DNA of 64,000 nt from a bacterium UBP16_UBA6123 (GCA_002423385.1 DIVV01000217.1:8781-72780); one strand, 5' to 3'. Numbered from the stretch's first letter, positions 2 through 34,986 are shown. Notes: generated by a model from the sequence alone, not told the origin. Program-made: numbers and translations.

Positions 2-3000
2 GTTCCGGCGACGCAGTTTGACGGCACTAACGTTAACAGCCGCGATCTTACATTAGCGGTTAACGCGATCGATGATCTTGCGCCTGTAACGCCCAATAAA
101 AATATAGCACAGACATTCACGGCGGTAAATATAATCGATTGTGCTCTGCCTTACTTACTTTCGATCGAAACTATCGATAATAATACCAATGGTAAAATTG
201 ATTATTTAAAGTATACATACAGTGAACCTGTAAAAGACACCACTTACGCTAACCGCGGCTCGAGTGTTACGACAGCCGGCAATGGCGCCGGTAAGCTCGG
301 TACGCCTGTTATTGCTTCTATAACGGCTGCGGGCACTCCGACGGGAAATGTCGTTGACGATGCAACCATATTTATGGTTGTCAACGAGAATACTGAGCCT
401 ACGGCCTATAATACCGGAGTGACCGGTAATTTTACTTCACATTCAACGCCTGAGCCTTATTCATTCGCTTCTAAATTCGGAACCACCGGCACTGGAAACG
501 GGCAGTTAACTGCTCCCCGTGATATTGTGGTAGATTCGGGTGGAAACATTTATGTAACCGAGTGGACTAATAACCGTGTTCATAAATTCAGCGCTGCCGG
601 TGTCTATATCGATAAATGGGGCGGCACTGTCGCTGGAACCGGTGATAAGCAATTCGACAGGCCTGATGGTATTGCCATCGATTCCGAAAATTGTATTTAT
701 GTTGCCGACAGATATAATCATAGAATACAAAAGTTCGATTCACAGGGTAATTTTATTACTAAATGGGGTAAAAACGAAGGAGCCGGCGGAGCAGGAGCGG
801 CAAGCGCCGTTGCGGGCGAGTTCAATCAACCGGTAGGTATATGTGTTGATAAAAATGACACTATTTATGTCGTCGATTATTCAAATAAGCGAGTTCAAAA
901 ATTTAATAAAAATGGCGGTTTCGTCGAAGCCGTTATCACTGCCGGCCTTACTGGCCCGCAAGGTGTGGCAGTCGATAACGACGGAAATATATTCGTCGCT
1001 GAATACGACGGCGCCGATGGTAATCAAATCAAAAAATTTAACAGCTCCGGCGTTTTTCAAACTTCATGGGGTGCGACCGGGGCCGCTGATGGTGAGTTTT
1101 CCGGCCTGGTTTATATCAAAGTCGATAAATTTGGCAATGTTTACAGTGGTGAAATCACCAATAAGCGCGTTCAAAAATTTACTAACGCCGGCGTTTTTGT
1201 CACAAAATTTGGAACGGGACCCGGAACCGACGACGGACAGTTTGCCGGTGTTATGGGCGTATTTGTGGATAAAAACCAGAATGTATATGCAGTGGATATG
1301 ACTACTAATAACCGTGTTCAGGTATTTAGAAACGGCATGATCAAAGATATCGCCGGTAACAACATGGTGCCGGTTTCCGCCTTCGCGCTTACCGATAAAG
1401 CCTGCCCTGTCGTGCTTAATACGACTTCCACCACTCCCGACGGCTGGTATAAGGCAGGTTCGGCTGTTAATGTCAGCGTGCAGTTCAGTGAAACTATGAC
1501 CGTTAATACAGGCGACGGCTCGCCTTATATTATCCTTAAAATGGACGGGCCCGGCCCGAACAGATGGGCCGTATATAACGGCGGTTCAACCACCGATACG
1601 CTTTCATTCGGTTATACTATAGTCGATACCGTTGGCACTGAGGATAATGCGGCCGACCTCGACTATAACGAAACTACTTCGCTTAAGTTGAACGGCAGTC
1701 TCATAACGGACGCCGCGCCTGTGGCAAATACGGCCATTGTAACGCTTAAAACGCCCGGCGCCGCCGGCTCGCTCGGCTTTAATAAAGCTATAGTTATCGA
1801 TACGATCAAGCCGACCGTAGTTGCGATGCATACGCTGGATACCAATGGCGACGGCATTACAGACGCGCTTGAAATTGAATTCAGCGAAAGTATCAAAGAC
1901 ACGGTTACCGCCGACTGGGTGCAGGATTGCAGCGTCACGCCCGCTAACTTCGCTATGGACGAAACCGGTCAGGTTGGCTGGGACGCATTTGACGGGTTCA
2001 GTACGACCGTTACTTCAGTGACTCCATTGAATTCGACTATTAACGATAAATATATACGCCTTACAATATCTGTGCCTGCGCTGTCTGCTATAACCACTAC
2101 CGGTATCATGGATTTTAAATACACCGCCGGCACTCTCGCCGACTGGGCCGGTAATATCATGGATACTTGCGCCGCGGCGGCCGCTGTCGATAAAGCACAG
2201 CCACGCGTTAAAAATATTACTTCGGCTAATGCCGACGGCAAGTACCGTACAGGCAGAGGTATAGAAGTAAATGTAGAATTCTCCGAAGTCGTCATTAGGA
2301 CCGGAACGCCGCGCATACTTCTTGAAACCGGTGCGACCGATAGATATAATAATTATTCAGCCGGTTCAGATACCAGTATTTTATCTTTTGACCCTTATAC
2401 CGTTCAAATGGATGATGAAAGCGCCGATCTTGATTATAAAGCGACGACCGCGCTCGAGCTGAATCTCGGCACCATCAAAGATAAATCGACCACTCCGAAT
2501 GACGCCGTTTTAACTCTTCCCGCTCCCGGCGCGGCAGGCTCGCTCGGCGCTAATAAAGCCATAATTATCGACGGTAAAATACCTCCTGTTGCAGCTGGAA
2601 TGGCTTTCACGCCGCTCGATTTTACGGGCGCCGATACCATAAAATGGACGAAAAGCTCCACGCCTCAGATAACATGGACCGCTGTCGGCGCAGATAATGG
2701 CCCTGCGGGTTATCCGGCTGACGGTAAAAAATACAGAATAATATTTACCAACAGCACTCAGGGCGTAGCCGATCCATTGGGCGCCGATCCTGATACGGTC
2801 GTCAACGACGGCACCAATCGTATAGATTCCGGCTGGATAATACCCGAAAATTATACGCCCACGCTCGCTAACGGCGAGTATCGCTATAGAATTTACGTAA
2901 AGGACGATGCTTCTACAACCTCGCCAACCGGTAATGGTAATGTTTCATTTACAGCTATTCAAAAAATGCGAGTCGATTTAAGCCAGCCTGACGCCGTACC

Positions 3001-6000
3001 GACGGCTAATGCTGAAATTAAAAAAAGCACGGGCTCCTTTACCAGCATTAACACATATTACACGAATCTCGATTCAAACTACATAAGAAGCACCATAGAT
3101 GTAAGTGATAACGGTAATCCTGCTTCAAATTTCAATACGGCGGCTAAATACAGGGTTATAATTTGTGAAAACGCCGATCCCGGAACCGGCGTATTGTTTG
3201 ACACAGCGCATCCGATGGCGGGTTCGGTTTTTGATTCCAACTGGATATCCTATGCAACCTTTAACGCCGGTTATAATTTCAATTTTGCCGCTAAGACCGA
3301 AACTTATTATAAATGGCGCGTTTACACTAAAGATAACGTCGGCAATGTTAATTATTCAACCGTTAAGGATGTTTACTACGATATACAAAAACCTTCCGAA
3401 CCTTCGCTAACATTGAAAGTTGCAGATAAACATTACGCTGATCCTTCCGATTTTTACTGGACTAAAAATAATCAGCCCGGCTTTACCGGCACCGTCGTTA
3501 CCGATACGCCAGTCGGGCTTGACGGTTCAGGGCTTCATTCCGCCGGCGCTTACAGGTTTTTGATCTACACCACGCAGACGCCTAAACCTGCTGACGAAGA
3601 TTCATTTACGCTTGTTCCGGCCAATGTGGCTTACGATACAGGTTGGGCGGCTTCTACGACCGATTTCGCCCCGGCCGCCGCTCTGGCTAACGGCACTTAT
3701 TACTGCCGCATCTATGTCCGCGATAACGCGGGTAATATAAATTATTCAAACAATACAAATGCGGCCGAAAGCTGTAATGCTAACGGTGATCTTATAATTA
3801 AAGTTGACGTCACCGCGCCTTCGATTAGTGCCAATAATTTTTCGCCGCATGCCTGGGTTGATTCTATTAATCCAACTTTCGGACAGGTAGTCGATAATTC
3901 ACCTACTTCAGAGCAGCAAAAAGCGGGTTCCGAAGTTACCAGCAGCGATGGCGCCGGTTCTGGCATCAAATCATACAGAATACAGGCTGGTGTTGGTTTC
4001 AGCGCGTGGGATATCGGCGTTGAATATGATTCCGGCATTATTTTAACCGGGTTGACTACTATGCCAGCGCGTACAACCAATGTTAACGGCGGCGACGCCG
4101 GGTTTATAACTAAAACTTTCGCCGACGGCAATTTAGTTAAATGGATGGTACGCATTGAAGATAATGTAGGCAATGTTCGGTATACACCTACACCCACACC
4201 GTTGGTTATGACCTTCGGTATCGAAGATCAAAATCCTAACGCAGTCACGCATAATTTCCCCGGAAACGATCTGTGGATAAGCAAAAATACATTCGATGTC
4301 AAATGGAACCCGGGTACCGATGTCGGAACTGCCGGAGCCGGCCATTATATCGTTTATGTTGCCAGTGCTGATTTTGCGGGCAGCGATCCGGCCGGCTGGA
4401 GTATTATACATAATTCGGCTAATTTAATTCCGACCGTGAATAATCCCGAATTATGGACCGTTCCGGTTATGGCGCTGGCGACTTATGAAGGCAAGACCAT
4501 TTACTGGAAGGTAAGATTTTACGATAAAGCGCTCAACTATACCGATTCAGCCACGACAACTTTTAAAATCGATATGACCAAACCGACCGTTGCGCTCAAT
4601 GCGCCCACCGTGTCCGGTGCCGAACAGGCGCCGCAGTCTATAACCGGCACTTCACACTGGGTGAATACACGCACGCCTAAACTTAACTGGAGCGCGCAGA
4701 CCGATCCTGACGGCGCGGCGGGCCAGCCGGGTTCGGGTTGGCAGGTTGCCGGTCAGTACGGCGCGACCTACGCTTATAAACTTGAGATATCGACCACTAA
4801 TTTCGGCGCTATTTTCTGGGATAACGGCGTTCTGGGCACCAATCCGCTCGATGTTAATCACATCATTCCCGCCGGCGCTTCGCTCGTCGATAGCACATTT
4901 TACTATTATCGCGTCCGCTTTTTCGATAAAGGCGGCCAGGCCGAAGCCATAGACGGCAATTTCAATACGACTCCCGTATGGAGCGTTAAATGCGATATAA
5001 CTAAACCGCAAAAACCAGTTCTCGTATGGCCGGGCGATGCGGCCGGAACCGAATGGATAAGCGCGGCGAAGCCGCTTCTGCACTGGAGAGGCGGCGACGA
5101 TAACGATGGCCTTGCGACTCCGAAACCCGGTATCGGCACCAAGGAAGTAATCGTGCAGATCGCTACAGATGCGGCGTTTGCCGATCTCGTTTTAAACAAA
5201 ACTATTAATTATACCGGCACGCCTGCCGCGCTTGACACCTATCAGATGGCCGCAGTCGATCCATCGCTTGCTGAAAGCACTTATTATTACTGGCGCGTTG
5301 CCGTTAAAGATAAATTCCTTCAGCAGTCCGACTGGTCCGATGTGTTCAGGTTCCGATGCGATTTCACGAAGCCGACGGCCGCCGTTCTCGACGGGCCCGG
5401 TAATATATATCCGCCTGGCAATACCAGCGAGGACGCATACTGGATAAATACACGAACTCCTACATTTAAGTGGACGCCGCCCGTCGATGTTGACGTAAGC
5501 GGCCAGTGCGCCGGTATGGCAAGCGTCGAAATACAGATTTCGAATAATGTTACCGTCGTAGGGAGCGATGTTACATTTAACTCTTATTTTTACACGAAGA
5601 AACTTATGAAGGGTGAACTGGCTTACGAAAATGGCGAATTCACCCTGCCCGACCCGAATAAGCTATCCGGTAACGGACCTTATTACTGGCGCGTTATTTC
5701 TTACGATAAAGCCAATAATCCAGTCGCTAATAAAACTATTTCCGATGTTTTCGTTTTCAGCATGGACTTCGTGCCGCCTGATTATTTTTCGATCAATCAC
5801 GAATACGCCGATAGCGGCAGCGTTAATTTAACTGTGCTCAGAATAAGGCCTGTGGGCCCGAATAAAACTACCGGTGACGCCTACGACGAAGTCGCCGATT
5901 TGTTTACGGGCGTCGCGACCGCCGGTATCAGTAAAATTCAATACTGGTACAGAAAACATCCTTCTACGACATGGACGATGGCCGGCTGGACCGATGAAGT

Positions 6001-9000
6001 TAATATGGTGTATGAAGTAGTGCTTCCCGATAGCGGTGTTTATGATATCGGCGCTAAATTATTCGATCGCTCCGGCAACGTCAGAGGCTGGGATTATGTG
6101 AATGACGGCCAGGATAACCAGGGTTTCTTTTCTTCATATCATTATAGAGCAGGTGCGAGCGACACTAATGAACTACGCCTGCGCCGTATCGATCAGTCGA
6201 TATTTAATGATTGGGGCAATGAATCACCGACTTCGTTATTGCCGGCCGACGGTGGTTATAGTAACTGGATCGTTCCGCCTAATGATTTTATAGTCCACTG
6301 GAGCGGGCAGTATTATGTTTCTACGGCGGGTATCCATACTTTCCGCACAACGACCGACGATGGCGTCAGGTTTTATATCAACGACACAATTAGAATCAAT
6401 AAGTGGATAGACCAGGGGCCTACTCCTTATACAACCGATCCGAATTTATCCGTCGGCTGGCATAAACTCGATATGTATTATTATGAAAAAGGCGGCGGCG
6501 CCACCGCTAAACTCGAAGTTGACCTGCCCGGCGGCGGCACTACATATTTACCGGTTCAGATACCTGATGTCCGGTCGCAAAACCCCGACGCTATCATAAC
6601 CGACTTAAGGGTTGACGCACAGCCGCCTGAAAGTAAATTTCCTTCTCTTCTTTCCTATACCAGCGATGATATATTCAATGTCGCCTGGAAGGTCGAGGAT
6701 ACATTTGAAATGACCACCGATAATAAGTTTAAGCGTAATTTCGAAGACCTCGGCCTCGGCGGGTTTAAAAATAAAACCGCGAATTGCGCCGATATTAAAA
6801 ATACCGATGGTGTGGGGCTGGCGCGCGCTTATGATAATAAGCGCTGCTTAGTAGTTAAAAAAGGCACCAATAATTCGGTAATAGATTTTTTTACGCCAGT
6901 GGATGGGTCAACTACTTATAACCTTTCAACCTATAAGTATGTAAGTTTCGCATACTGTACTTCCGGTCCTGTCAAATTTGATTTAATCGCAACTATTACG
7001 GTTAACAACAGGACGGGTTTGTATGTTATTCAAACCTGCACCGATCCCGTAATCATTAATAAAACTGTCGCCGAAAATCCGGGTGTCGGCCTCGGCGTGG
7101 CGCCATGGGGACTTGCTGAATTTTCAGGTAAAACACCTAATTTTAGAAATGATGAAAACTGGCATACCGTTACTATTAATCTGTACGAACAGATCAAACT
7201 CAAATACGGCAAAGTTTCCGCCGACAGCGCTCTGCTTCGCTCCGTTTATTTTTACGGCGAAAATCCTTCCGATGATGCCGCGATATATATAGATAATTTC
7301 TCTCTGTCGAGTAAAGGTATGGCGCAATCTAATGTAGATTTCAGAGACGGCTGGCATGGTAAATGGACGCGCTGGGAAGACGATACCTATTCAAATACCA
7401 TAACTTCATATAATCGCGATTTTGAAGAGGCGCAGGACGGCTCCGTTTATTTCTTCCGCGGCCGCGCTATCGATAATGCGGGTAATATGGAACCGGCAAC
7501 AACCGCCGCCGATGAAAATAATTACAACCCGCCGCGAATTTCAATAGTTAAATCGCCGCCCGATCCGCCTACTAACTTAAGATGGCAGGCGCTTGACGCT
7601 GACGGTGTCACATGGGTGGAGGCTCGTAATTCAAATGCCAATCTTACCGACCCGAAGAACCGTAAAATAAGGGCGGCATGGGACCCGCCTAAAGATCCGT
7701 CAGGAATTAATGACTATTACATCCAGGTTGCCACGAGTGAAACTTTCACAACTAAAAGTTTGGTGAGCGCTCATACTAAATGGCTTACGAAAGCCGCGCC
7801 GGTTTTTGTTATTAATGACAGCTTCAATTCGGGTATCGATGCAGCTACCTGGCCGGTTAACGAACCGCCGTTTGTCAATAATAAAGGAGCCGCTTATTTT
7901 GACGGCGCTAATAAAGATAATAAAAAGTTAATATCTAAAGAATTTAACCTGGCATCGTATAACGACTACAGTTACGCGGCTTTTGAATTTAACGCATATT
8001 TCGACTCGGAAGACGCTAATGATTATATGCAGGTCGGAATTCAGTATTACGATAATAACACATCATCATGGGTTACCGATAAGTTTCTGGAGCTTAAACA
8101 GACCACGCAAAAATGGAAATTTAAATCTTACGTTATAAGCCATTACATAGGCAAGCGTATTAAAATATATGTCAATGTAAAAGCCGATGCTAATTCGCCA
8201 AACCCTAAGGCCGGTATCGATAATGTTAAAATATGGGTTGAGAAAAATTGCTATGAATTTACAGGTATCGACCAGACTATATATTACTTCAGGCTTCTAT
8301 CTAAAAATAACGCCGGATTCAGCAAACCGACGACTATCACCGATAGCTACCGCTCGTATTTTTCGACCGCGAAGGGCGACACTATAGGCACTAACGAAAC
8401 AAGCGTATCGCCCGCCAACTGGAACAGCCTTAATATTACAAACGATAAATTAGTAAGCGACTGGGGCTGGGGCACTACCGAGTTAATGACAGTTTATAAG
8501 GAAACTAATATATTTCAGGACAGTTTTGAAACGGGTATAAAGGCCGCAAACTGGCCGACTGTTGGCTCCCACTTTAAATATAACAATTCAATTGGTTGTG
8601 TTGAAAATACTACTGAAATTAAAACTGGTGGCGCAGCCGATAGCATACTGACTGAGGAAATGATATCTAAAGAATTTAGTCTTGCAGGCTATGACCGGGC
8701 TACAATGGAATGTAATGTTGCATATAAATTTGCTGACGTTAATACTCCTAACGACAGGGCGACGATCAGTGTTGAATATAAAGATGGCACTAACTGGATT
8801 ATAGACCAGTCATCTTATTATGATAAAAACACATCTGATCAGTTCAGTGGTGCATCTCCCAATTTAACAGATTGGCGTTCCGTGTCTTTAAATTTATCAA
8901 GTTCCTTAGGTAAAACCGCCGTACGAATCCGTATAATCGTTACCGCAAATAAAACTGCTCTTAATCCCATGGTTTATCTTGACAACTTCATGCTTAACGC

Positions 9001-12000
9001 CGCTAAAAAAGTCAACTCGAAGATCGCCGAAACTTTCTATGAAGATAACTTCGATACGGCTATAAGCTCCGACTGGACCAACGGCGATACCGGCGTGTTC
9101 AAGTGGCAGGACAGCGGTTATGATAAAACAAACGACGGCCATGTGCATATTGAAGCGACGGCTAACGTCAATAATAAAAAACTTACTTCTAAAATATTTG
9201 ATCTGTCAAAAACTTACGAAGGCTCGGCTGAATGTCTCATTTACCTTGATACTAATGATAGCGCTGATTCGATTAAATTCGCAGTTGAATATAAAAAAGG
9301 CGCAACGTGGACCGAAGATCAGAGTGAAACCATTAAAACCAATTCAGTCAACTGGAAAAAATTTGAGCTGCCTTTTAAAGACGCGCTCGGCAAATCTCAA
9401 GTCAGAGTGGTGTTTACGGCATATACGAATAACCAGCCGCTCAAGATAGGTATAGATAACTTTAAAATGACGCGCGGCAGCCAGTATATATTCAAGCAGG
9501 GCGATACCACTTCAAGTTTTTACAGGCGTGAAATTAAATTTTCTAAATATTCCAAAGGTAAAAAAATCACTATTTCAACGCAGGGCACGGCTAACTACTC
9601 GATATACGTAAATGGCGGTGAAATTTTAAATGGCAGCGATATAGCCACCGACGAAGTTAAGACATTTTCCAACCCGTACGACTTTAATTTCGGCGACGAC
9701 GATACATGCTGCGTAGTTACCTTTAAACTCACTAACACTAAATTCGATGAATTCAATTCGCCGGCTATTTCTTATAAAGTAACAGTTGATGAAAAGATGA
9801 AAGGCATAGTCGATACAACGCCGCCGCGGCCGATGAACCTTGTCGCTTACGCCAAAAGCGGTAAAAATATCGATAAAAAAGGCAATCCGTCGCCGTTCCA
9901 GTATTCAAAAGATTTTATAGTAACTACCGATTCATCCGATATAAGCGGTATTAGAAGATGCTACTATAAGGTGTGGTCCTATACCAATGCGGCCCTCGGC
10001 GGTAAAAACGCCCCGGCGAGCGATGTCGATTATACCGGTTACATAGATTTCCCGGCTACCGAAAAAACCGATAACACTATTAACATAGATGTAACCGTTG
10101 CTTTAGCGACTGAAGATTCATCGGGCCGCGAAACATGCAGCGTGTGGTTCGTCGATAATAACGATATCAACGGTTTTGATTACAGGGAAGAAGTATTGCT
10201 TCGCGTTGACCGCCAGAAACCGCCTAAACCGGTTCTGCTTAAATTTAAAGCGGATAACGGAGTCGAATATGTCCATACGACTATATGGGACCAGAAGAAA
10301 CCTACTTTCAGATGGGAAAAATCAGTTGATCCTAAATTTAACAATACGCATTTGAGCTCTGCGACTTTGATGGATGAGTCCGGCACCGGCCATTACCAGT
10401 TGCAATTAACTACTACGGACGATTTTGCTAAATCCGATCTCGAAGTTTTCATTAAAAATGATGAAACTATATTTACACAAGAAGTTAATTTCGTGCCTAA
10501 AGATAATCTGCCGATGGGTGATTATAAATGGCGCGTAAGGGCTATTGACTCTCTTACCGATACTACCGAGCTGAATTTTTCAGCCTGGTCGGATACAGGC
10601 GAGCTCCATTTAGACTTTCACCCGCCTGATTCTTATGTATTGATACCGCCGCCGGACGGCCCGTATTATCGCGAAACCGATAACGTCGAATTTCTGCCAA
10701 GCGTATATTTTTCGATAGTGCAGACCGATCATGCAAATAAATGGCATAAAATACTCAGTAAAATGGCGACCGGCAATACTACTACACCTGTTGAATTAAC
10801 CGACCTTACTCTCGACGACGATAAGCCGCGCGTCGATAGAGACGGTAATTACATCGTATTTGAAAGAAAAAATGCCGATAAATCCGAAATTTGCTATATG
10901 GAGTCGAGCGGTGAAAACGCGTTGATTCTTTCAAGACAAACTTATGATACTAAAAATTTATCGTCCGGCGATAAGATCAAGTATAGCGGTACCGTTAAGG
11001 CTACCGCGACTGGCGATTGTTATCAAAACTATATATTCTCGACTAAAGAAATCGCTCTCACAAGTGATCAGACCGGATTGTATATTGAATATGATTACTA
11101 CGCAGACACGACCGGCGCCGGTATATGCGGTATCAACATAATGTATGAAACAACCTCCGTCAGCTATGGCGTTAACGGCAAGTGGGAATTAAGGCTCGAT
11201 CCGGCGTGGCCCGCTACGGTTAAACCTTCCGCCGACCTCGGAACGGCACATCATAATAAATGGCAGCACCGTAAGATCGAAATACCATCAACTTTAATGA
11301 TAAACGAAGTCGCTATTAAAACCTGGGAAGTTTCATTCGAAAATGATACGCCGGGTAAAAGCATAAACGCTTATTATGATAATATCACAATAACCAATTC
11401 TGACGGCCGTATTCAAAACGCTATTTATTCACGCGGCCCGCTTGAATTTACTCAGGCTTCCGATTATTACAACAATTATGAAAATTACTCAGTTTCGATT
11501 GAAAAAGAGAGAATAACCAACGAAGAAATCAACATTAAAGTCACTAAAGATAAGTCGCCTGATATTTCTTCGAACGGCCGTAAAGTTATATTTTCATCGT
11601 TTGACGGCTACAGGCGTTATCGTCTTAAAATAAGCGAGGCGCCGTCCGGCTATACGGTTAAAGCTAATATACTCGATGATACGGCAAAAGGTATTTTTGA
11701 TTCCTCGATGGATAATGGCGATGACTTTAGAATTATATGGCAAAACTACGACATTGCCACTTCTAAAACGGTTGAAGTCGATCTTGACAGATATCTTGAA
11801 AAATTCACCGCCGATGAAATAATCGTATGGTTTAAAATACAGGAAAGCGCTGGCTGGAGCGGTGGGCTTTCAAATTATTACGTTGAATACGGCCGTAATA
11901 AAGTGGGTCTTCCGCCGACGGATTACACTAAAGTTTATAAATATTATGACGATTTCAACGAATATTTTGACACTTCTAAGTGGAAAGCGATAGGTAAAGC

Positions 12001-15000
12001 CGTGTGGCAGAACGATGGAACCGTTAAGCTGCCTGACGCCGAAAATTCAGCTTCAGGTAATGGTTTCTATTCAGTCGATCAGTTCGAACCTGGAATCGGC
12101 GTGCTTATGTATATGAAAACCGAATTCGTAACAAGTGAAATACGCCTTGGTTTTTCAAACTCAGATTTCAGTAATGCTTTTGTGTTCCGTTCAGATGATC
12201 TTGATCAATATCTGCAGGCGTATTATGAAGTATCGGCCAAGAAAGCCGTATGGGCCAATGACGACAGAGTTACGCCTTCGGTTTATCAGTGGATAACTCA
12301 CCCTACTGGCTTAGAATCGATTGAAAACAACCTGGTTAATTATCCGTCTAGTGCCGCGTTTGCCGATGATAGCGGAAAATTTAATACTTACGCGCTTTCA
12401 TGGATGAAACGCTCGGGCGATTCGGTTAATAAATTAAGGTGGTATTATAACACCGATACATTCCCCGATCCGTCAGATTCAACTCCGACTTATGATCTCG
12501 ACAGTGGAAGTTTGCCGTTGTATTTCATGAATAAAAACTCCACTTCTTCCGTTTATATAGATAAGGTCATAGTAAGACTGCTTCTTGAAGAAGAACCGAC
12601 TGTCGAAGTCGATACTAACGAAAGCACTACGACCGGCCGTTACGAGCTTGCAGTCGTTAATATCGAACGCGGCAACAACGATAACGGCATGAAACTTATA
12701 ACTAAAAACTCCGATTATGACCGTATTAACCCGAGAATCAGCCCCGACGGATCTAAAATTGTATATATGGCCGATGTCGGCGACGATCAGTATGATGTTT
12801 ATCTCATCGATACTAACGGCGCTAATAATACGAAATTGACGACTTATTCCGCTAATGATAAAGATCCGACTTTCTCGCCTGACGGTAAAAAAATAATATA
12901 TCTTCAGGACACCGATGCGGTTACCATAGGCGCCGGTACTCTTGACGGAACGGTAAGTATCATTATGACCATGAATTTAGATGGCACCGAACAGCAGTGG
13001 ATCGAAACGCTTACTCCGTCCGATAAGTGGAATTTCAGGTCGCCTGTTTACGGCCCCGTCGGCGATCGTATTTATTACGCGCGCGTTTCCGATTCGGATA
13101 ATTATGAGGTTTACTGCCTGTGGGCGCGCGATTCATATCTTGGTAAAACTATTGAAAATTCCGAAGACCTTGTCGAAGATCAAATATCGGAACTCGACAC
13201 CGCTCAGGACGCCGATTATATTTCAATCGAAGGACTTAAGAAAATAGGCTGGTATTATTCGAAGCCTTCAATCAAGGTTTATGCCCGCGACGCGGAAGGC
13301 CATGGCGCGCGAATATATCATAACTGGACCGGCGATTCGCTTGAAAATAATCTGTACAGCGCTTCCACTACCGGCGTCGGCCTGATATCATACGATGTGC
13401 CTTATTATATGCCGGACGACCATGAATATCGCGAGCAGCTCAGTTTCTTAGCGACCGATGTTAACGTTCATCCGTCTGATGAATACTTTGTCGATAAACA
13501 GGATTCAGGTAACGTCGAACTTGCGCATAAACTTATACCGCTTATAGATGACGCCGCGCCCGCCAGCGACATACGCATTCATATCGTTGACCGTGACGGC
13601 GCCACGGTAGGCGTCGATAAGGACAACCGGCTTGAATATACTTCTGAAACGACGCTTGGCAGCAAAAATGGTTACGGCGGCGATAACGTTTTAAAGACGG
13701 CCGAAGTAAGTTTATTAGTAGCCGTCGATAGTAAATATTCCGACTGGGTTTATATTTCTAATTATGAAACCGCTCCCGTCGGATTCCATCCCGAAGGCGC
13801 CGCGCCGCTTGGTTATGAAACCGAGCCTGTCAGCCTGGATGTAAGCGAAACTTCGAATATATGGCTCAGATCTGAAAAGGCCGCCGAGTATTTTTACCCG
13901 GAATTAAAATGGACTTTGAAAGATACCGCGGAATCAGGACTAAAAAAAATATACACATGGTACGGTTCCGAAGGCCGCGTCATTAAAATGGTATCTGAAG
14001 AAATATACCTGGTCACCGATATACCGCTGCTTTATAAAGAAAGAGTTTATGTGACTACTAATTCTAATTTTGCGCTTGGAACCATGGGCAGTAATATTAG
14101 AGTTGAAAATGACAGTATCTACATTGAAAAAGCCAACTCCGGTACTTATGAGACGCCGATAATGAATCTGGGCTCGCATATTACCGATTTAACCAAATTA
14201 TACTGGATAAGCGAAACCGGCTCGGATACTACCGCCGTTGCGACTAAACCGGTTAAATCGATTCAATTGAGGCGCGGCACCACTAAAAATCCGTCGGCTT
14301 CCTCCTGGACCGATTGGATAACCGTCGGCGACACGATGCTCGAAGACGCCACTTCTGAAATCGACATATCCATGGGCGTTACAGGCGTATTTTTTGAACT
14401 CGAAGATAAAACCCAGGGCTGGCCCGTGGGTTCTGACGAGGTCGTTTACGTTCAGGCCCGTTTCGGTCTCGCGGGATATCTCAGAATTACCGAAATAGGT
14501 TTTGCTTACGACCGATGCGCTGATGGATTGCGCGCTTATGACGACGATCCTAACGTGGATACCGCTCCAGTGTGGTTCAGCGTGTATCGAACCATGCCGC
14601 GTATGACTTTCGGTTATAACACTAAATCGTCTTTTGATAATCCAATGAATATAAGATATTATTGGAAAAATTCAAGAGGAAAGTCGGGCGGCTCCGTTGA
14701 CGAACCGCTTACGCTCGATTACAACTCGGTTTTAACGCCTGGAAGTATTTCAGTTCAATTGATCGGATCTACTTATCAAGACTATGCGGGCACTAAATAT
14801 AACCCGTCAGGCACTATAAGTGTCGCGCTCGATACAGCTAAAACTCAGGAAATAGTTCTTGATACCGGTTTTGTTGACGGTTCCTTCGAAATTACCGTAT
14901 GGGCGATAGATCTTGCGGCGAATGAAACGACAAAAGAAACTTACGTATTTTACGTGAATAATTCACCGATAAGCGAGCCTGAACTTGATATAAGCCGTTC

Positions 15001-18000
15001 GACGTCGAATGAAAATAAATATATGACCAATATACCGTTTCCTGTATATAACAATGACCTGTACAGCAATATACAATTTGTAGATGCGACCATGGAGGTT
15101 ACCGGTTGCGTTTACCGTCAGATATCCAACCGGCCAGATTTTAAAGATGTTTTGTGGTTGAAAATGAAAACTTCCGAGTCGAATCCTATCAGTATATGGG
15201 AATTTTCGACAAATACGGTCGGCCTGTTCAATTACGATATCACTTATGATGGTTACTCTACTCCTTACCTTAACAGTGTAGGTAATAAAGAACCTGATAT
15301 TTACGATGGTAAAAAAGTGGTTTATGCCCGTTATAAAAACGGCGCCGGCTTGATTTTAGGCCCTGTTACAGATGAAATAATTCTCGACAGGACCATGCCG
15401 GCAACTTCACTGCAGGGCGTTACAATTAACGATGATGAAAAACTTGGCGTCAACGGCGGTGAAATCGTTCTTCAACTTACCGCGCTCCATGATTTCGAAG
15501 ACGGTACTTCTTCGGTTACCTCGAGAATGGGAACCGTCGAAACCGCCGTAATAGTGAGTGAGAAATATAACGCAACTTACGTTAATGAATTTAATTATCC
15601 TGACGCGAGTTTAAGGTTGAGATACCACTCCCAGGACACCGGTGAAATAGAATCCGGTTCATATACATCACCGGTATATCTTATTGGAACTCACATCAAG
15701 CAGTCGCCGCTCGGACGTATCAGGTGGACACAGGTATCTGACACCGATAATTCGGTTGAAATATGGCTGCGCGCTATTCCTGATAAAGGCGACGGCACTC
15801 CAGACTTTGCTAATGCCGGCGACTGGAATAATGGAGGCGCCGCTCACAGCAAGGTTGGAATCGGTACTACCGAAGTAGTTGCATGGCAGGATATGGTTAT
15901 CGAAGGTAATACCGTGTCGGCGTTTGATTATCAGTTTATTCAATTCAGAATCAAGTTAACGACAAAACTGCCGACTGGCATATATCCTAAAATAGACCAG
16001 ATCGAGTTTGAATTTAAGCGTAAATCTGAAATGACTTCTTTTGATCCGATAAACGATTCTGAAGGCAGCTCGGGTTATTTTGAAAATCCAGTAGTGGTGA
16101 ATATAGCTAAAAATAACGAACTCGATAAAATAATGTACCGCTGGTCTTATTCCGCATCTCCAGGCGCGGTCGGCGCATTTACGGAGCTCATTCCGACGGC
16201 TCTGCTTAACGTTGAAAAGCCGAAGTACATACTTGAAGTTAATCAGGACCGGCCTTCGTTCCTGCAATGGTTCAGTGTTTCTAATACGGGTGATACTGAA
16301 GCGGTTACCCATTCAAAACTGTTTAAATTTTCGCTTAAAGGCACTAAAGATTCATGGGTTAAAATACTTGATAACGCCGCGCCTTTCGATGATGGTATCA
16401 TAATGGGCCCGAACGTTAAGCTGAGACTTAATCCTGCCGTTCCCGGTGATCCTTCGCTGCCGGGTAAAATTAAAATATCCACTAACCCCGAAATGACGCC
16501 TTTATTAGCAGAACTCGAATATACGGTGAGCCCGTCGCCTGTCGAGGAACCTATTACGCTTAAAGCCCCCGATGGCCTTTCACCCGCGCTCGAAGGGCGA
16601 GTTACCGTTTACGCGCAGTTTGAAAGTTCGTTCGGTGAGACTACCGAGATTGTATCGCATTCGATTATGCTCGATCTTAACAGCCCTAATGCCATTCATA
16701 ATCCTAACGCCAATCTTTACAAAATTGGTGATTCCGAATATGCCGATTATTCGAAAGGCAAGTTTACCAATGTTACTTATGCCGATATTAACGGCGATTC
16801 ATTTGAAGTGAAGCTCGGTTATAAAAACGATCTGGTGCTTGATAAATTTGATGCATTAGCGGCTAACTGGGATACGCCTCAGGGCGTTGCGGCCGATTCA
16901 GACTCGGTTTTCGTCGCCGATAGCGTTAAGCAGAAACTTTATAAATTAAGCACGCAAACTCTTGCCGTTCAATCGTCGAAAACGGGGTTAGGCTCTCCGT
17001 GCGGCGTTGAAGTTGACGGCGATCATGTTTATGTTTCTGATAAGATCAGGCATATCGTTTATAAATACCGTAAATCCGATTTTACGAAAGTCGGTTCTTT
17101 CGGCGTTGAATATAATGCGGGTTCTCTGGAAAATATGCTCAAGGCTCCCGAAGATATAGCTATAGATCCGTCCCGTAACTACCTTTATATAAACGATGCC
17201 GGCAATAAACGCATAGTTAAAGTCAGTCTCGAAGGCTTAAGTTACGTAGCCGATAAACCTTATACATTTTTTGAAAAAATGGATTTAGTATCGGGTATAG
17301 CAGCGGATGACGAAGCTATTATTCTGTCTAACCCGGGCGGACATATAATTGGTAAATACGATTCTAATTTCGCTTCCGGCACCGCTCAGAGTCTGTTCGG
17401 TGAATATAATTCCGCGGATGACGACGACGCCCATCTTAACACGCCGCTGCAGTTAGGTCAGGACGCCGGCTATATTTACGCTGCCGACAGCATGAACAAC
17501 AGAATAGTCAAAATGTCTTATAATCTTAAGTATATATCCAGTTACGGCTCCGCTTCAATACCTTATCTGAACAATCCGGTTGCCGTTTCTGGATGTAACG
17601 ATAGAATTTTCGTGTCGGATTTGAACAATAAAAGATTGGTTTCTTTAATTAAAGTGCTCGATGAATATGAATTGAAAGCTACGCTTGGCGCTTCTGATGG
17701 AAGTTTTTCGCCTCCCGGCCAGAATAAGCAGGACGTTCCTTTCAGGCTTTATGAACCGGCTATGATTACCTCCGATACGGTTTACAGTTATGTGGCCGAT
17801 ACTAAAAATCATAGAATATTGAAGGTTAATAATGAAACAATGCTTGTAGAGCGTCAATATGGCGTTACTGGTGTTTTGGGCGCGGACACGGCTCATTTGA
17901 GTAATCCGAATGCCGCATGTCCTGATTTTACTGATAAAACCGCCGGTTATATTTTCGTTTCAGATACAGGTAATAAGAGAGTTATTAAACTTAAAAATAA

Positions 18001-21000
18001 TTTCGGCAGTTTCGCCTATCTGACTGATTCTTTATCAACGGGCACGCCGGTTTCAGTAGATTTTGCGGGCGGGCTGTGCGTCGATAACAGCGCGGTTCCC
18101 GCTGAGCTTTATGTGGCCAATAAAACGAATATAATTGTATTCAATGCGTCAACGATGTTAAAAATCGATGAAATAACCGCTCTGGATGGAGCTTTTGTTA
18201 ATGTTACCGACGTCAAGTATGCCGGCGGTTATTTTTACGTTGTTGATAACGGCCGTCATCAGATTTATAAAGTGCAGAAATTGCGGCCCGTGTCGGCTGA
18301 AATCGTTAAGTATAATTCATTGACGACCGCTTCGGCATTTGCTAAGGGGTTGAATTCTCCTTATTCAGTCGCAATTTCTCCGGATTATAAAGACGTTTTT
18401 ATTACCGATAGGCAAAATTATAGAGTGCTTCACCTCGACTCGTCGTTTAATTATAAATCGAATCTGGGTTATAACGGTATCGAGGGAATCGGAACGGTAA
18501 GCGTTACCCTTAATAAGCCGATGGGCGTTACCTGTATAAAAACGCCTGCCAGCAAGTATATACTTGTTACCGATACTCTAAATAACAGGCTCATTAAAGT
18601 TAAATACGATACTTATTCATATTCGCCTTACGGCGAGTTTGCCTCGCGCGTAATAAGCCTTGGTAATTACGTCGTGCCTCTTGCAGATGGAGTCGGGGGC
18701 GCCGGCATTAAAGTTGAAACTAAATATTTGCATTACGATCCCGTTTCCACTCAGGGCGTTGAATTATGGGTAAGAACCGCTCCGGACCGCGGTGATGGAA
18801 ATTATGACGGACGTTATTGGTCGAAGTGGGAAAAATTCCTGCTGCCTAATATTACCGACGTAAGCGTCAATAATTCTTTTATTAACAGGCGCGCGTTGAG
18901 CGATACGCAATTCGTTCAGTATAAATTGATTTTATCTACTCAGGACCTCCGCCAGACGCCGAGTGTCCGCACTACAATGTTTACCTATAAGCGCGGCTGC
19001 GATGGCGACCTTGTGACACCGAGCCCGCACACGGGGTATTATCTCACTCCGCTTTATGGTACCCTGGACCATTTCAATATAGTTTATGAAGATGAAAATA
19101 TATTGAGCATCAACTATGATCAGGGCAACGTTCATTATAAGTGGAATGCCGGCGCTGAACAGGTTATTAACGAATTAGTTTACGCGGTAGCCGAAGGCGT
19201 TAACACGCTTACATATTACGCTAAAGATATCGTGGGCAAAGTGTCGCCGACTGCGAGTATAACTTATTCTATCGATACCGTACCGCCGGTTAACCCCGCG
19301 GTACGCGTTACTGAAACCGCGCCGATCAGTACCAACAGTGTTAATCTCGATTTGACCGGTGTTATGGATACTAATGCCACTCCTCAACTTCAGATGATAG
19401 TATCTGAATTTGCCGATTTTAATAACACTACATGGGAAAGCTATTTAACAAGCAAGAACTATATTTTCACCGGCACTCTCGAAACCGGTATTAAGCGCAT
19501 TTACGCGCAATTTAAAGATAATGCCGGCCAGAAAACCCTTAAAGTATGGGACACCGTGCGACAGAAGAAAGCTAGCGAAGCTCCAGTCGCCCGTATTAAA
19601 TCTTACGAGCATGGCGGCAAGTATGATTTTGAACGTGGTTCTCTCAACGGAACGCAGGTTGACCGTTACGGTCATGTGAGTCTGGCTAATGATACTTTCG
19701 GTTTTGTGTCTTCGCTCAGCGATCCGAATTTGAGTAAACCTATGGGAGTCGCGGCTTATTATAATAAAACCTTGAAATTGTTCGAAATATTCGTAGTTAA
19801 CTCGCAAAATCATACGATTAATAAGTTTGTTTCGAGCGATGACACTCCTAATATAATAGAATTTGTAGCATCGTATGGTGAAACCGGTGTCGCCGGCTCC
19901 GATGAAGTTCATTTTAACACACCGACCGGCGTGGCTTATGACGGCACATACGTTTACGTCGCCGATTCGCTTAATCACAGAATCGTTAAGCTCTATAATC
20001 AGTCGGTGCCGCTTAATAAAATGAGTTATATGTGCCAGTTCGGCAATCCCGCATCGCCTGGTACGGGAACTTCAAATCTTAATACGCCGTTCGATGTCGC
20101 CTGGGCCAATGGTTATCTGTATATTTCCGATTCCGGAAATAAGCGTATCGTAAAATTAATATCTAACAACATGAAATACATTGCGGCTTTGAATACCGAA
20201 GTTAATCTGCGCGGCCTTACTTCTGACGGTTTTTACTTATACTACATAGCAGACAAGGATGTAACACGCGTTAAAATTGATTTTGGCGGCTCTCCTCTTA
20301 AATATAGCGTGGTTAACGCAGGTGCGCTGGTTGATCCTTATTTCGTTCAATCTGATGGGTTGAACCTTTATATAGGCGATTCCGGGGCTAAAAAAGTAAA
20401 AATGACCGCGCTCGATTTTAAAATTAAGAGCGAATACGACCAGCTTGTGAGTATTGGCGGAATAGCTTCAGTTCAGGGTTTATCCACGGTTTATTTATTT
20501 ATAGCTGAAAGTTCGACTAATAAGTTATACAAGTTGAATTCCGTTGACACATTCTACAAGAGTTCAGGCATTTATATTTCGGAACCGTTAGATATCGGTT
20601 CTCATGTCACTAAAATAGATAAGGTTTATTATACGGTTGAAGGCAGTTCTAAAACCAGCGCCAAGTTCGAAATGAGGGTTTATCCCGACAAAATAGATTC
20701 ATTGGGAGAACATAGCGCTGATTTAAGCTATTACGAAGGCGAAAACGGATGGACGGTTCTCGATGAAACCGGAAGCGAATTCCCGCCGTCCGGTTTCCCG
20801 ACGCAGCCTAACTCGATGACTAATTTTGCGGGCCAGTACCGTTATTTTGTACAGTACAGGGCTACTTTAAGTACTATAGATAAACAGGTCACTCCTATAT
20901 TGAAGAATTTCAGGGTGGAATTTTTGAAACGCGGCGACGGCCTTTCGTCTAATTTACTTTCGCTTCCCGGTATTTCAATCTATGCTGATAACTCTAACGA

Positions 21001-24000
21001 CTGGCCTGGCTGGTATGTAACTCCGCCGTCTTTTTCAGTGTCCGCGGCTGAATGGGACCTGTTTAAAATTAAATTGACTAATAGCGCCAATATGGCCGGT
21101 ACCGAATACAGCTTTACCGCCGGCGCTAAAATTCCTGTAATCACTACGGTTGCGCCGACGACGGCCGGACTCGGAAATTTTATATTCACCGAAGGCACTA
21201 ACAGCGTTACCACCTGGTCAAAAGATATTTCCGGTAATGCTTCTTTTGGCGAAACCATTGAGATTTATTATGATAAAACGCCTCCCGGCAAGCCTGAAAT
21301 CATACTTGTCAGCACGGCAATAGATGATTCTGAAAATCAGACTTATTACGTTAAAACTTCAAAAATAAGTTTTGATATAAAAGTCGAATCGTCAGACGGC
21401 CGTCCAAGGCGCACAGTATTTTCCAAAAATGTATCCGAGCTTACCGTGCCGCCCTCAGATTCGACAAAATGGTTTGAAATGACGGATAAAACCGTTGCGG
21501 GTCACCTCATACATAAAGTGATTGACTATAATCTGAGTGAAGGGTTGAACATAATATATACCAAGTGCAGCGATCAGGCTGGCAATATTTCTAACGTCAG
21601 CTATATTAAAGTTCACCTGGATACCACTAAGCCGAAATCTTATAACGACAGGGTAATTCACGCTTCTAAAGAAGCGTTCGAGTTGAGCGGCCGTGAGTTG
21701 GATGGCGTATTGATAATAAACGACGGGCTTATGATGTCAAAATGGCTTTACAATAAACATTTTGATTTCTCGCCAGCCCTGCCGAATTTCGTTTCTTCCG
21801 ACAGTAAATACGTTTATACCTGCGATACTTCGATTACCGGCCCCCGAATAGGCGTTATGGGCAAATTTTTAGACGGCATCAAGGCCACTAAAAATAAATT
21901 CATATTGGGTACTACCGAGATTCTTCTGAAAGCCCCGGTGGCGGTAATTCCTTTTAATGATAAGCTATTCGTGCTCGATAAGGATTTACATATTTTATTC
22001 AGGGTAGCCTTAGATAAACACACTAACGATCCCGCTAAAATAATTGGAAATACAATGGAAGTAGTATTCGGAACCGTTAATACGCCTTCTACATCGCCGC
22101 GAGGCCTGAATAGTCCTCAGGGATTGTCTATTTTCGGTACCGAAGAGATATATGTCGCCGATACTCTTAATAACAGGGTATTTAAAACCAATGTAAATTT
22201 GACCAGTATAACGGCCCAGTACGGATCGGTTTTTGCCAGCTCCATTAAATCGCCTGTTTCGGTAACCGTTGATCAGTCAAATGTATTTTTAGCCGAAAAA
22301 GGTTTAAGCGGTCAGAACCGCGTTATACAGTTGGATAAAAACTTAAACGAAATACAGTCGTTTGTCGATTCGGCTTCCGGCGTTTTAATGGACGATATAA
22401 AAGCGATAACCTCCGACGGCAGCTATCTTTACGTGTCTCATAAAAATGGCGCCGAGCACAGAATCTCGAAATTTATAATCAATCCGGTTATAAGTTATTT
22501 AACCTATGTTAAAGAATTTACGATAGGCGGCGTGGCAAGCACTTTCAATGACGTACGGGGAGTTTTTGCCGACGGCGAAGATATTTATCTGGCTGATACG
22601 GGCAATAAGCGAATAATTAAAACTTCGTCTATTTCGTGGAAATATAAATCACAATTCGGCGTTACGGGCGTTCCGGGAAATGACGCGTTTCACCTCAACA
22701 GGCCCACCGCGCTCTGCTCGGACGCTTCACATCTATATGCGCTTAATTACCATCCGACTTATAATGGCATAGTTTATAAGATCAGAAGCAGTTTTATCCG
22801 TGATACTGAAAACAGATATATATTCCTTGAAACACCCACCGGCGTAGCCGCTACCAAGGATTTCGTATATCTTGTCAACCCCGGCGCCGGCGATGATAAA
22901 AAAGTATTGCTGATATGGGGAAAAGATATGCAGACAAGATATCCTTATGATAACTCGGTCGTATCGCCTCCTTTGATTTATCCTATCGATATATGTTCGT
23001 ATTTCGACGGATCGAAGTATTTCGTATATATCGCCGATTATCAGTCGCAAAAGGTATATAAATACGAAGAAAAATTAGGACAGTTATTGAGAGTCGGCGA
23101 ATCGGCGACGGGTAAACTTATAAGGCCTATAGCTTTGAGCGTCGATGCAAGCGGCGTGTACGTTCTTCAGGGAGACAGTACTGTAGTTAAATTAACTCCT
23201 GATATGCAAAATGTCGCTACAAGCTACGGCCGCGAAATCAGATTCGGTATCACCGGCGTTTCCGGCGTGGACGATTTCCATTTAGATCCGTCTCCTAAGT
23301 TAGATCTTACAGGTGTTACGGTATATTCAAAAATAGTGTCTACCGGCAACCGTGTTTATGTGACGGATACCAATAATCACAGGGTAATGAAATTTGATAC
23401 TTTCCTTAATTATAAGGGAGAATTTGGTGAAAGAGGAGTTCCGGGCACCGGCGATAATAATTTTAATAAGCCTTCCGGTATTACGATTTTCGCCGGCGAT
23501 ATATACGTTAACGACAGCGGTAATCAGCGTTTGGTTAAAACCGGAAACGATGCGGGCGTTTATACCTCCGCATGGGTTAATATAGGATCGCACGTTAATA
23601 AGATGAATAAAATGAATTACAGCGGAAATATTCCGTCCGGTTCAGGGCTTAATATAGAAGTGCGATTCGCTTATCAAAAAGAAGGCGTTCCATTCATGCC
23701 GGATGTGACTGAATGGGAAGCGCTTTCCCAGATGGCCGATGCTCCGGTGCAGACGCCGGTTAATCATCCTTCGCCGGAAATTAACCAGTATTTGCAATAT
23801 AGAGTTTCATTCTTGACTGATTCATCGGCGAGCGTTCCGCGGCTCAATAATATCGAGTTTTCTTATGTGAAAACGGCCGATGGCGAACAGGACCCCGATC
23901 TCACGGTGGCTTCCGGCCTGGGTTATTTCAAGAAATTCCCGGAAATATCTCTTGCCATGAATGAAAAAGGCGGTCTGTTCTACCAATGGTACAGGTACAA

Positions 24001-33834: not shown

Positions 33835-34503
33835 ATGAAAACATATAACGGGATTAAATTGCTGGGTTACCAAAGCGGGCGCCGGGGCGTGCTGCTGTTC
33901 GGTATAATAATGGTCATAGCGATACTCGGCATAGTTTATTTCAAGGGATTCACGCTTTTTAGCACCGAAAACAGGCGCGCGAGGGAGCATGAACTCGATT
34001 CGAGGCTTTCACAGATGCGCAAAGCGCTGGATATGGCTAAAAATAATGAAAATTTCAGGTCTGATTCAGATTTTGAAGGTCTCGACGAAAAAACTTCTTC
34101 GGATGACGTTCAGAAAAAATTAGTGGCCGCGCTTCGCAACAGCTCTACTTATCAGCGTAATAAAATGGATGCGAAGTCCGTTTATTTAAGGCAGGAATTC
34201 GACGCCCCGATGCTCGAGGTTGACGTAGATGAAAAACTTAATGTGGGATGGCGTATTGCCGTCAACCGCGTTAATTCGTCGAGCTTCGAAGGCGATAATT
34301 TCATGAAAATTTACAGGATTACGGAACAATCGAACGTGGCGCAGGTTAATCAATGGTGGTTCGCGACGACCACCGAAAACAGCCTTATTTCAATCAGAGC
34401 TGATTCCGATAAACCTTCTGAGTCCGATTATCCAGGTCAGCGCGACACTGCCGGCGCGAAGGGCAAATACGGCAAAAACGTACTGCAGATGAAAGTGAAG
34501 TAG
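33835..34503 (+). CDS. Hypothetical membrane-anchored protein (N-terminal TM helix, charged/coiled periplasmic or extracellular domain)
   Basis: GGAG 8 nt upstream of ATG. N-term RRGVLLFGIIMVIAILGIVYF is hydrophobic. No recognisable catalytic motif. It lies directly downstream of, and co-oriented with, the giant gene. Confidence 0.5.
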   Translation: MKTYNGIKLLGYQSGRRGVLLFGIIMVIAILGIVYFKGFTLFSTENRRAREHELDSRLSQMRKALDMAKNNENFRSDSDFEGLDEKTSSDDVQKKLVAALRNSSTYQRNKMDAKSVYLRQEFDAPMLEVDVDEKLNVGWRIAVNRVNSSSFEGDNFMKIYRITEQSNVAQVNQWWFATTTENSLISIRADSDKPSESDYPGQRDTAGAKGKYGKNVLQMKVK

Positions 34504-34533
34504 TATTCAAGACGGCCGCCACGTGCGTTTAAA

Positions 34534-34986
34534 ATGAGCGGCGCGTCGTATAAAAGGCGGTATTTAATGAGCTATTTATCTAAAGTCGAACTGCTTGAAA
34601 TTTTATATGATATGGATTCGCCGTCTAATGAAGGCTCGCTGCTCGTTCATGAAAGCAGGAGCGGCGAAGAGCTTTTATGCTGCGACGTCGATTGCGGCGA
34701 TCATCTTGATTTATTTAAAATAGGCGGGCATTACGAAGCTTTTTTCTCCACGTTCGGAATGATAACTCACGCAGACGAAGAAAACGCCGTGCCGAAAGTC
34801 GAAAAAAACCAGTTTCGCGGCGTAACGCGGTTAAACGCCACTATCATAGATATCAGGGATAACTGGTATATATGCGACGCCGGTTTTTATGTTTACGCCA
34901 TGTCGATAACCAATATAAGCGGCCTTAAAAAAGGCGACAGGGTAACGATAGCCGGCGGGCTCAGAGTCGATCTTATCGTTAAATAA
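34534..34986 (+). CDS. Hypothetical protein (150 aa)
   Basis: ORF follows the previous gene after 30 nt. No recognisable motifs. Convergent with buk, 10-nt gap, with a small palindrome taaact-atc-agttta at the junction. Confidence 0.4.
   Translation: MSGASYKRRYLMSYLSKVELLEILYDMDSPSNEGSLLVHESRSGEELLCCDVDCGDHLDLFKIGGHYEAFFSTFGMITHADEENAVPKVEKNQFRGVTRLNATIIDIRDNWYICDAGFYVYAMSITNISGLKKGDRVTIAGGLRVDLIVK

Follow-up and report, generated by a model that had tools for sequence, protein, structure and literature searches.

A divergent PA14 and MAM-like jelly-roll cassette as the candidate ligand-binding region of a giant bacterial protein

The stretch of DNA analysed here (the window: 64,000 nucleotides of the bacterium UBP16_UBA6123, GCA_002423385.1, DIVV01000217.1:8781-72780) carries a giant open reading frame (ORF; 2..33703, at least 11,233 codons) in which nucleotides ~6160-9480 encode a cassette of one PA14 domain, an orphan β-rich segment (segment B) and three mutually homologous MAM-like jelly-roll modules (M1 to M3). 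We propose, with moderate confidence, that this cassette binds the ligand and determines the specificity of a giant, non-RTX (repeats-in-toxin), apparently non-enzymatic and β-rich surface or extracellular protein. PA14 and MAM-like jelly-rolls are well-known kinds of domain and the cassette is a new, divergent example of them in an unstudied phylum, so that the finding is incremental; what is new, and interesting within those bounds, are the orphan domain B, the gain of a module within a split FN3-like domain and the local hypervariability. Annotation is almost wholly lacking for the giant proteins of uncultured candidate phyla, and locating the likely ligand-binding region of one of them narrows to ~1,100 residues the part that would have to be expressed to find out what the cell attaches to.

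A sequence-only reading of the window had described a carbohydrate-binding cassette composed of a PA14 domain, a β-sandwich resembling a carbohydrate-binding module (CBM) and three tandem MAM/lectin-like modules, with a BNR/sialidase-like region further along the same protein. That description was largely real with regard to the PA14 domain and to the family and fold of M1-M3, but not for the strict tandem arrangement, the CBM identity of B or the BNR/sialidase region.

All features described below lie on the + strand. Residues are numbered from the first ATG of the giant ORF (374..33703, 11,109 aa) as aa = (nt-374)/3+1, and nucleotides 6250-9480 thus correspond to aa 1959-3036; the cassette region is coding and lies inside this ORF. 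Because frame 2 is open from nucleotide 2, the gene begins upstream of the window, which therefore lacks the N-terminus of the protein. The ATG at 374 is not the true start of the giant gene, nucleotides 2-373 being in frame, and the gene is longer than 33.7 kb.

M1, M2 and M3 are divergent MAM-like jelly-roll modules

Modules M1 (7799..8239, aa 2476-2622), M2 (8504..9004, aa 2711-2877) and M3 (9032..9475, aa 2887-3034) are paralogues with 25-30% identity to one another (BLASTP E values of 1e-8 to 1e-12), and a hidden Markov model of the three retrieved no fourth copy within the giant protein. They share an end motif, [ILVM]DN[VFILM]x[ILVMF], which occurs exactly four times in the 11,109 residues, closing B and each of M1, M2 and M3. 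The previously described run of three tandem ~165-aa modules with DN ends is accordingly retained as a set of paralogues with a shared end, but the lengths are ~147, 167 and 148 aa, and only M2 and M3 are adjacent; between M1 and M2 lie ~88 aa, among them the C-terminal portion of an FN3-like domain.

The closest Pfam families for individual modules were InhA-like_MAM for M1 (PF20773, 23.5 bits, cut-off 26.9) and MAM for M3 (PF00629, 23.0 bits, cut-off 26.4). A sequence search of the PDB with the three-sequence M profile gave nothing significant, and an NCBIfam scan of all modules gave nothing. A profile built from M1-M3 only (A1) matched 157 of 1.84 billion representative proteins at E≤1e-3, 18 of them at E≤1e-10, and a second alignment (A2) combined M1-M3 with 31 full-length matched regions from these 157 proteins. 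Scanned singly, members of A2 matched InhA-like_MAM in 23 of 34 cases (best E 1.4e-20), Reelin_subrepeat-B in 17 and MAM in 8. Among solved structures, the A2 profile matched immune inhibitor A of Bacillus in its MAM-like domain (4yu5, E 1.3e-14) and also retrieved reelin (E 2.9e-10). An external-only profile, made of non-orthologous sequences, scored M1, M2 and M3 at 52, 72 and 55 bits, respectively, all at full length.

Like the InhA-like MAM domain (PF20773, 4yu5) and reelin subrepeat B (PF21471), the M modules are jelly-rolls of ~150 aa, and the core pattern is common to all: they open with D..FE, carry a conserved acidic residue and two Trp, and close with G.YIDN/D.V.I. Across the MAM-like family, the conserved Trp and Asp are nearly invariant. 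The M modules differ in having no associated M6 metallopeptidase domain, in scoring below the Pfam cut-offs when taken singly, and in being present threefold within a giant scaffold protein, with one copy nested in an FN3 domain.

The AlphaFold2 model of M3 was all-β, with a predicted local distance difference test (pLDDT) score of 85.5 and a predicted TM-score (pTM) of 0.83. Its first Foldseek match was the Limulus LAST-MAM domain (8a28, E 3.4e-7, query-normalised TM 0.70), and the top matches also included a porphyran-binding CBM (8xmz) and the 'cleaved adhesin' domains of gingipain K1/K3, among them 4itc. Further matches comprised CBM4, CBM16, CBM22 and CBM61, the receptor-binding domains of iota-toxin and CDT, and the MAM domains of neuropilin-1, PTPmu and PTPRK (5l73, 2c9a, 8a1f), with query-normalised TM values of ~0.55-0.72; for the CBM4/9/16/22/61 jelly-rolls the superposition reached TM ~0.65-0.72. 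The profile links and the fold of M3 together identify M1-M3 as divergent members of the bacterial InhA-like MAM/reelin-subrepeat-B jelly-roll family. The designation 'MAM/lectin-like' is therefore upheld at the level of family and fold, by profiles and by the M3 model, although single modules remain sub-threshold on Pfam.

Eukaryotic MAM domains serve in homophilic adhesion and oligomerisation, for instance in meprins and receptor phosphatases. An explanation that we regard as unlikely is that the MAM-like modules are likewise protein-protein modules, devoted to homophilic adhesion, oligomerisation or lattice formation, and are not lectins, in which case PA14 alone, if anything, would bind sugar. 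It agrees with the presence of the LAST-MAM, neuropilin-1, PTPmu and PTPRK domains among the fold matches of M3, with profile links that reach the InhA MAM domain and reelin subrepeat B, which are not classical lectins, and with conserved Trp and Asp residues that look structural, no obvious aromatic sugar platform having been identified. However, sugar-bound CBMs (8xmz, 2xom, 3jxs, 2y64) match M3 equally well, at TM ~0.70, and the fast divergence between orthologues reported below is more readily reconciled with recognition of an external target that varies than with self-association, which would be conserved. The four cysteines conserved in eukaryotic MAM domains are also missing from M1-M3, in which we counted none in M1, two in M2 (aa 2742 and 2780) and one in M3 (aa 2954). 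The modules thus resemble eukaryotic MAM domains (PF00629; meprin, RPTPmu, neuropilin) through the fold match and the sub-threshold Pfam match of M3, and depart from them in their bacterial origin and in these missing cysteines.

M1 is nested in a split FN3-like domain

M1 interrupts an FN3-like domain whose N-terminal part lies at 7556..7786 (aa 2395-2471) and whose C-terminal part lies at 8252..8353 (aa 2627-2660). The module is missing from the orthologue of Candidatus Wallbacteria bacterium GWC2_49_35 and from a more distant orthologous fragment (P0100): window aa ~2472-2614 have no counterpart in either sequence, and the flanks align at 56-85%. In both sequences these flanks form one uninterrupted FN3-like domain (fn3 22.9 bits in P0100, cut-off 25). 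After deletion of M1 in silico, the junction was spanned by an fn3 match of 23.1 bits (cut-off 25), compared with 13.2 bits for the N-terminal half alone. Because M1 is absent from two orthologues with an intact FN3 domain and its removal restores the fn3 match, M1 is nested in a split FN3-like domain. Judged by the sequences compared, M1 is specific to the lineage of the window.

The GC content of the M1 DNA (0.35-0.40) is the lowest of the surrounding 5 kb and compares with 0.47-0.51 just upstream. Among nine modules compared, M1 was nearest to the positional M3 of a distant fragment (P0104; 39% identity), ahead of its own neighbours (30% and 25%), a hint that it may have been gained by recombination. 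The insertion (7787-8215) also holds the only small tandem repeat of the region (AAAGATAATAA, x1.9, at 7913-7933).

The domains of RTX adhesins that protrude from split Ig-like domains are those that bind ligands, a property that has served as a criterion for locating such binding domains (PMC12077191). M1 displays the same arrangement, with fn3 scores slightly below the cut-off, and leaves and re-enters an Ig/FN3-like domain as domains of the RTX adhesins AhLap, FrhA and MpIBP do. The split-domain rule drawn from RTX adhesins thus appears to hold outside that family.

The cassette changes faster than the rest of the protein

The closest genomic relative of the window is the contig of GWC2_49_35 (phylum Candidatus Walliibacteriota), in which one frame is open across 16.8 kb and is colinear with window aa 605-6393 at ~70% identity; the source of the window is therefore most probably an uncultured, Wallbacteria-like bacterium. 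Identity with this single orthologue, calculated in windows of 100 aa along the 5,800-aa alignment, averaged 70%, and nearly all windows outside the cassette ranged from 63 to 90%. Over M2-M3 (aa ~2700-3050) identity fell to 43-47% (M2 43%, M3 47%), the longest and deepest trough of the alignment, M1 indel aside, and the second half of B was 53% identical. Proteins that are only 43-47% identical have saturated synonymous sites, which makes dN/dS unsuitable here. The M2-M3 trough identifies the cassette as the most rapidly changing part of the protein and, for this reason, as its most likely target-binding region. In the very long RTX adhesins, too, variation falls in the ligand-binding region.

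The lowest identity between orthologues and the indel of a whole module would also be expected if constraint were relaxed, that is, if the PA14 domain and jelly-rolls were spacer or filler in a long fibre or matrix protein, with no specific ligand and with a neutral M1 indel. We consider this improbable, notwithstanding the deviant low GC of M1 and the functionally unrecognisable bulk of the giant protein, both of which would suit it. The ORF is open, the modules keep the core residues of their family and full-length profile matches, the four related sequences seen all contain M2 and M3, and the Asp-Asp pair of the PA14 domain is retained in both orthologues. Moreover, in experimentally studied adhesins the domains that bud from split domains bind ligands, as we propose for the cassette.

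Two further dips in identity, to ~0.49-0.50 and accompanied by small indels, were observed at 3980-4300 (aa ~1201-1300) and 18820-19120 (aa ~6151-6250), and might represent other variable or ligand-contacting parts.

The PA14 domain resembles carbohydrate-binding PA14 domains of adhesins

The PA14 domain (6161..6559, aa ~1930-2062) stands in line after a completed Ig/FN3-like domain. Pfam PF07691 matched aa 1967-2055 with 35.3 bits when the segment was isolated and with 30.2 bits within a 4,000-aa chunk, both above the gathering cut-off of 24. Since the alignment with RsgI3 begins at aa ~1932, the domain starts ~90 nucleotides before the position previously given. Among solved structures, phmmer retrieved the tandem PA14 of RsgI3, a Clostridium thermocellum anti-sigma factor (6qe7, E 3.1e-14); other relatives were 6qdi, the PA14 of the Marinobacter Lap adhesin (6m8m, E 2.5e-5) and an RTX protein, with weaker matches to the PA14 lectin structures of Marinomonas MpIBP (6x9m, E 0.0074; 5j6y, E 0.0095). 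The presence of a PA14 domain is thus confirmed, its nearest solved relatives being the carbohydrate-binding PA14s of RsgI3 and of RTX/Lap adhesins. In a word-indexed homology search with the whole cassette, all 99 matched proteins (99/99) were found through PA14 only, over ~10% of the query; because it was driven by PA14, this search is uninformative on B and the M modules.

Residues Asp1995-Asp1996 (6356..6361) align with the ADDG of MpPA14, the Lap adhesin and RsgI3 and form a candidate DcisD calcium- and sugar-binding motif, which is present in both orthologues. In MpPA14 the DcisD motif consists of Asp110/Asp111 and holds the sugar-binding Ca2+ (PMC8092209). The PA14 domain of the window therefore resembles those of MpIBP (MpPA14), Marinobacter Lap and RsgI3 in Pfam family, sequence similarity and the Asp-Asp pair, and resembles those of the MpIBP and Lap adhesins also in its setting, a giant multi-domain β-rich protein with other putative ligand-binding modules beside it. 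It differs from the adhesin PA14s in standing in line and not budding from a split domain.

Segment B is an orphan domain

The core of segment B (6695..7321, aa 2108-2316) is an orphan β-rich domain that ends in AIYIDNFSL. Its best Pfam matches were sub-threshold, SGBP_B_XBD (PF18329) with 20.0 bits (cut-off 26.4) and CBM_4_9 (PF02018) with 18.3 bits (cut-off 25.9); on a longer segment of 251 aa the scores were 19.7 and 17.7 bits. The two weak matches recurred in fragments P0100 and P0250 and not in L002, that is, in two of three homologues. These homologues were three orthologous giant-protein fragments only. Searches with the single sequence and with a three-sequence profile retrieved one Wallbacteria fragment only, two metagenome scans retrieved no homologue, a profile search of the PDB was negative, and neither Pfam nor NCBIfam gave a significant match. 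Foldseek returned no match at E≤0.001 with the AlphaFold2 model of B, whose pLDDT was 41.9. The CBM-like identity formerly ascribed to B is accordingly unconfirmed, while its β-rich character and its YIDNF-type end stand. B contains four Cys, of which only C2158 is invariant among the three homologues.

We think it plausible, from sequence comparison, that B is an enlarged jelly-roll related to the M modules. This possibility follows from the M-like start and end of the segment, its EDTFE start resembling the EDNFD and QDSFE starts of the M modules and its YIDNF end being likewise shared, and from the fact that both weak Pfam matches are jelly-roll sugar binders. Alignment of B with the M-family profile by hhalign, in local, low-mact and global modes, gave probabilities of 16-18%; the agreement in register is suggestive and we make no claim of homology from it. 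That B is instead an unrelated novel fold, neither CBM nor jelly-roll, whose YIDNFSL end arose by chance or convergence, strikes us as rather unlikely, though by no means far-fetched: no profile match in Pfam, NCBIfam or the PDB was significant, hhalign with the M family reached 17%, the external MAM-like profile scored B at ≤5 bits and the AlphaFold2 model was unusable. Set against this are the strict placement of the DN end motif, whose four occurrences in 11,109 aa are always at a module end, the resemblance of the EDTFE start to those of the M modules, and the recurrence in orthologues of weak matches to two jelly-roll sugar-binding families.

The flanks of B may also be the halves of a split domain. 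Upstream, 6596..6694 (aa 2075-2107) is a possible N-terminal half of an Ig/FN3-like domain, proposed from a sequence pattern only (PPxS...FNVAWKV); downstream, 7325..7549 (aa 2318-2392, ...YFFRGRAIDNAGN...) is an Ig/FN3-like C-terminal half, with a pattern shared by the other Ig-like units of the protein and 74% identity in the orthologue. Because the flanks (FNVAWKV before B; NVDFRDGW…YFFRGRAIDNAGN after it) resemble Ig/FN3-like halves, B may be nested in the manner of M1. A chimera from which B had been deleted gave no Pfam match, and jackhmmer retrieved only its orthologue.

Proposed mode of action

In the mechanism that we favour, one PA14 domain, three jelly-roll modules and the orphan B, perhaps a fourth such module, would make up the binding region, and the Ig/FN3-like and NHL propeller domains would form the scaffold. 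M1 would bud from its split FN3-like domain as ligand-binding domains project sideways off the stalks of RTX adhesins, and the jelly-roll and PA14 modules would touch the target, for which a polysaccharide or glycoconjugate of another cell or of a surface is the likeliest candidate. Because the cassette outpaces the scaffold in change, including the gain or loss of a whole module, specificity may be retuned between lineages. Glycan recognition is a reasonable inference from the sequences: the Asp-Asp pair kept in the PA14 domain, the CBM-like fold of M3 and the precedent of the RTX adhesins, whose ligand-binding regions include CBMs and PA14 domains that bind sugar, make carbohydrate the likeliest ligand. 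The M3 model superposes on CBM jelly-rolls, and the xyloglucan-binding domain of SGBP-B and CBM_4_9 match B weakly; the cassette differs from CBMs and SGBP-B in having no significant sequence match, no adjacent glycoside hydrolase and no identified binding-cleft residues. The surface location of the protein is assumed, since the window does not include the N-terminus and neither an export signal nor an anchor was seen.

Several observations weigh against this proposal. Eukaryotic MAM domains mediate protein-protein contacts and not sugar binding, and the MAM-like domain of InhA belongs to a protease. Each of M1-M3 falls under the Pfam gathering score, M2 has no direct Pfam match at all, and the tests of family membership are partly circular, because the intermediates in A2 and in the external profile were picked with the M1-M3 profile. 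For B, the AlphaFold2 model calculated from three sequences (pLDDT 41.9) gives no reliable fold. In the PA14 domain, the second-shell sugar ligands of MpPA14 loop 11 (Gln156, Gly157 and Asp159) are replaced by K2039, Gly and Gly (K/G/G instead of Q/G/D), so that any specificity of this PA14 would differ from that of MpPA14. No secretion signal, anchor or hydrophobic transmembrane-like stretch was detected in the part of the protein that the window encodes. Finally, the high divergence of the cassette could be due to a relaxation of constraint and not to selection for new specificities.

More speculatively, the protein could represent a hitherto undescribed class of giant, non-RTX surface proteins of Walliibacteriota, rich in NHL propellers, in which a fast-evolving cassette of exchangeable jelly-rolls budding from split FN3 domains would set target specificity, with whole modules such as M1 acquired by recombination and B a new fold for binding sugars or cells; we hold this broader interpretation to be doubtful.

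The remainder of the giant protein

Pfam recognised NHL and other propeller repeats at the N-terminus and at aa ~5500-8670, a PD40 repeat, a few Ig-like domains, the PA14 domain and the weak MAM match, which together name only a small fraction of the protein, most of it having no recognisable function. No catalytic domain was found by Pfam over the 11,109 aa, and the last 499 aa had no Pfam match. Large arrays of NHL-type β-propellers, with copies 22-48% identical, extend over ~16900-26400 (aa ~5500-8670) and 416-1340 (aa ~14-320) and make up much of the protein, an unusual scaffold for an adhesin-like protein.

Membership of the RTX adhesins was considered and ruled out, as the giant protein has no GGxGxD nonapeptides, no LPXTG motif and no transmembrane segments; the HemolysinCabind family of Pfam was not matched either. 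Internal similarities are limited to 22-48% identity, with no near-identical run of tandem extenders. Unlike RTX adhesins, the protein therefore has no identical tandem extender repeats, and it also differs from them in having no recognisable signal for a type 1 secretion system, in the many NHL β-propellers of its scaffold and in its candidate-phylum host.

The region at 26440-27520 (aa 8689-9049), previously read as BNR/sialidase-like and as further support for glycan recognition, had no Pfam match at E≤1, and the Asp-box SxDxGxTW was found nowhere in the whole protein, even in relaxed form; this assignment is withdrawn. The same residues contain ~5 repeats of 'xYIxWxx' (hydrophobic-Y/H-I/V-x-W) at a spacing of ~55-60 aa, perhaps an unrecognised propeller, as judged from the repeat pattern.

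Directly after M3 lies an unassigned β-rich domain (9485..9823, aa 3038-3150) that is well conserved in the orthologous fragments P0103 and P0104. It has an adjacent Cys-Cys pair (DDDTCCVVTF), and its only Pfam match, Glyco_hydro_2_N at 13 bits, is at chance level.

Genomic setting

Between 5800 and 10000 neither a further ORF of at least 110 aa nor a notable DNA tandem repeat is present. Directly downstream of the giant gene and on its strand, two small ORFs (222 and 150 aa) occupy 33835-34986 and could encode accessory or export factors; the 222-aa ORF had no NCBIfam match. The remaining genes of the window are ordinary bacterial chromosomal genes, including uvrC, those for butyrate kinase, phosphate butyryltransferase, a sigma-54 activator and TolC/MacAB-type efflux, and rpsA. 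In the Logan assembly of SRR5323154, contig 116 (L001) encodes a UvrC identical to that of the window, with the same neighbours, which indicates that the same or a very close strain is present in that sample.

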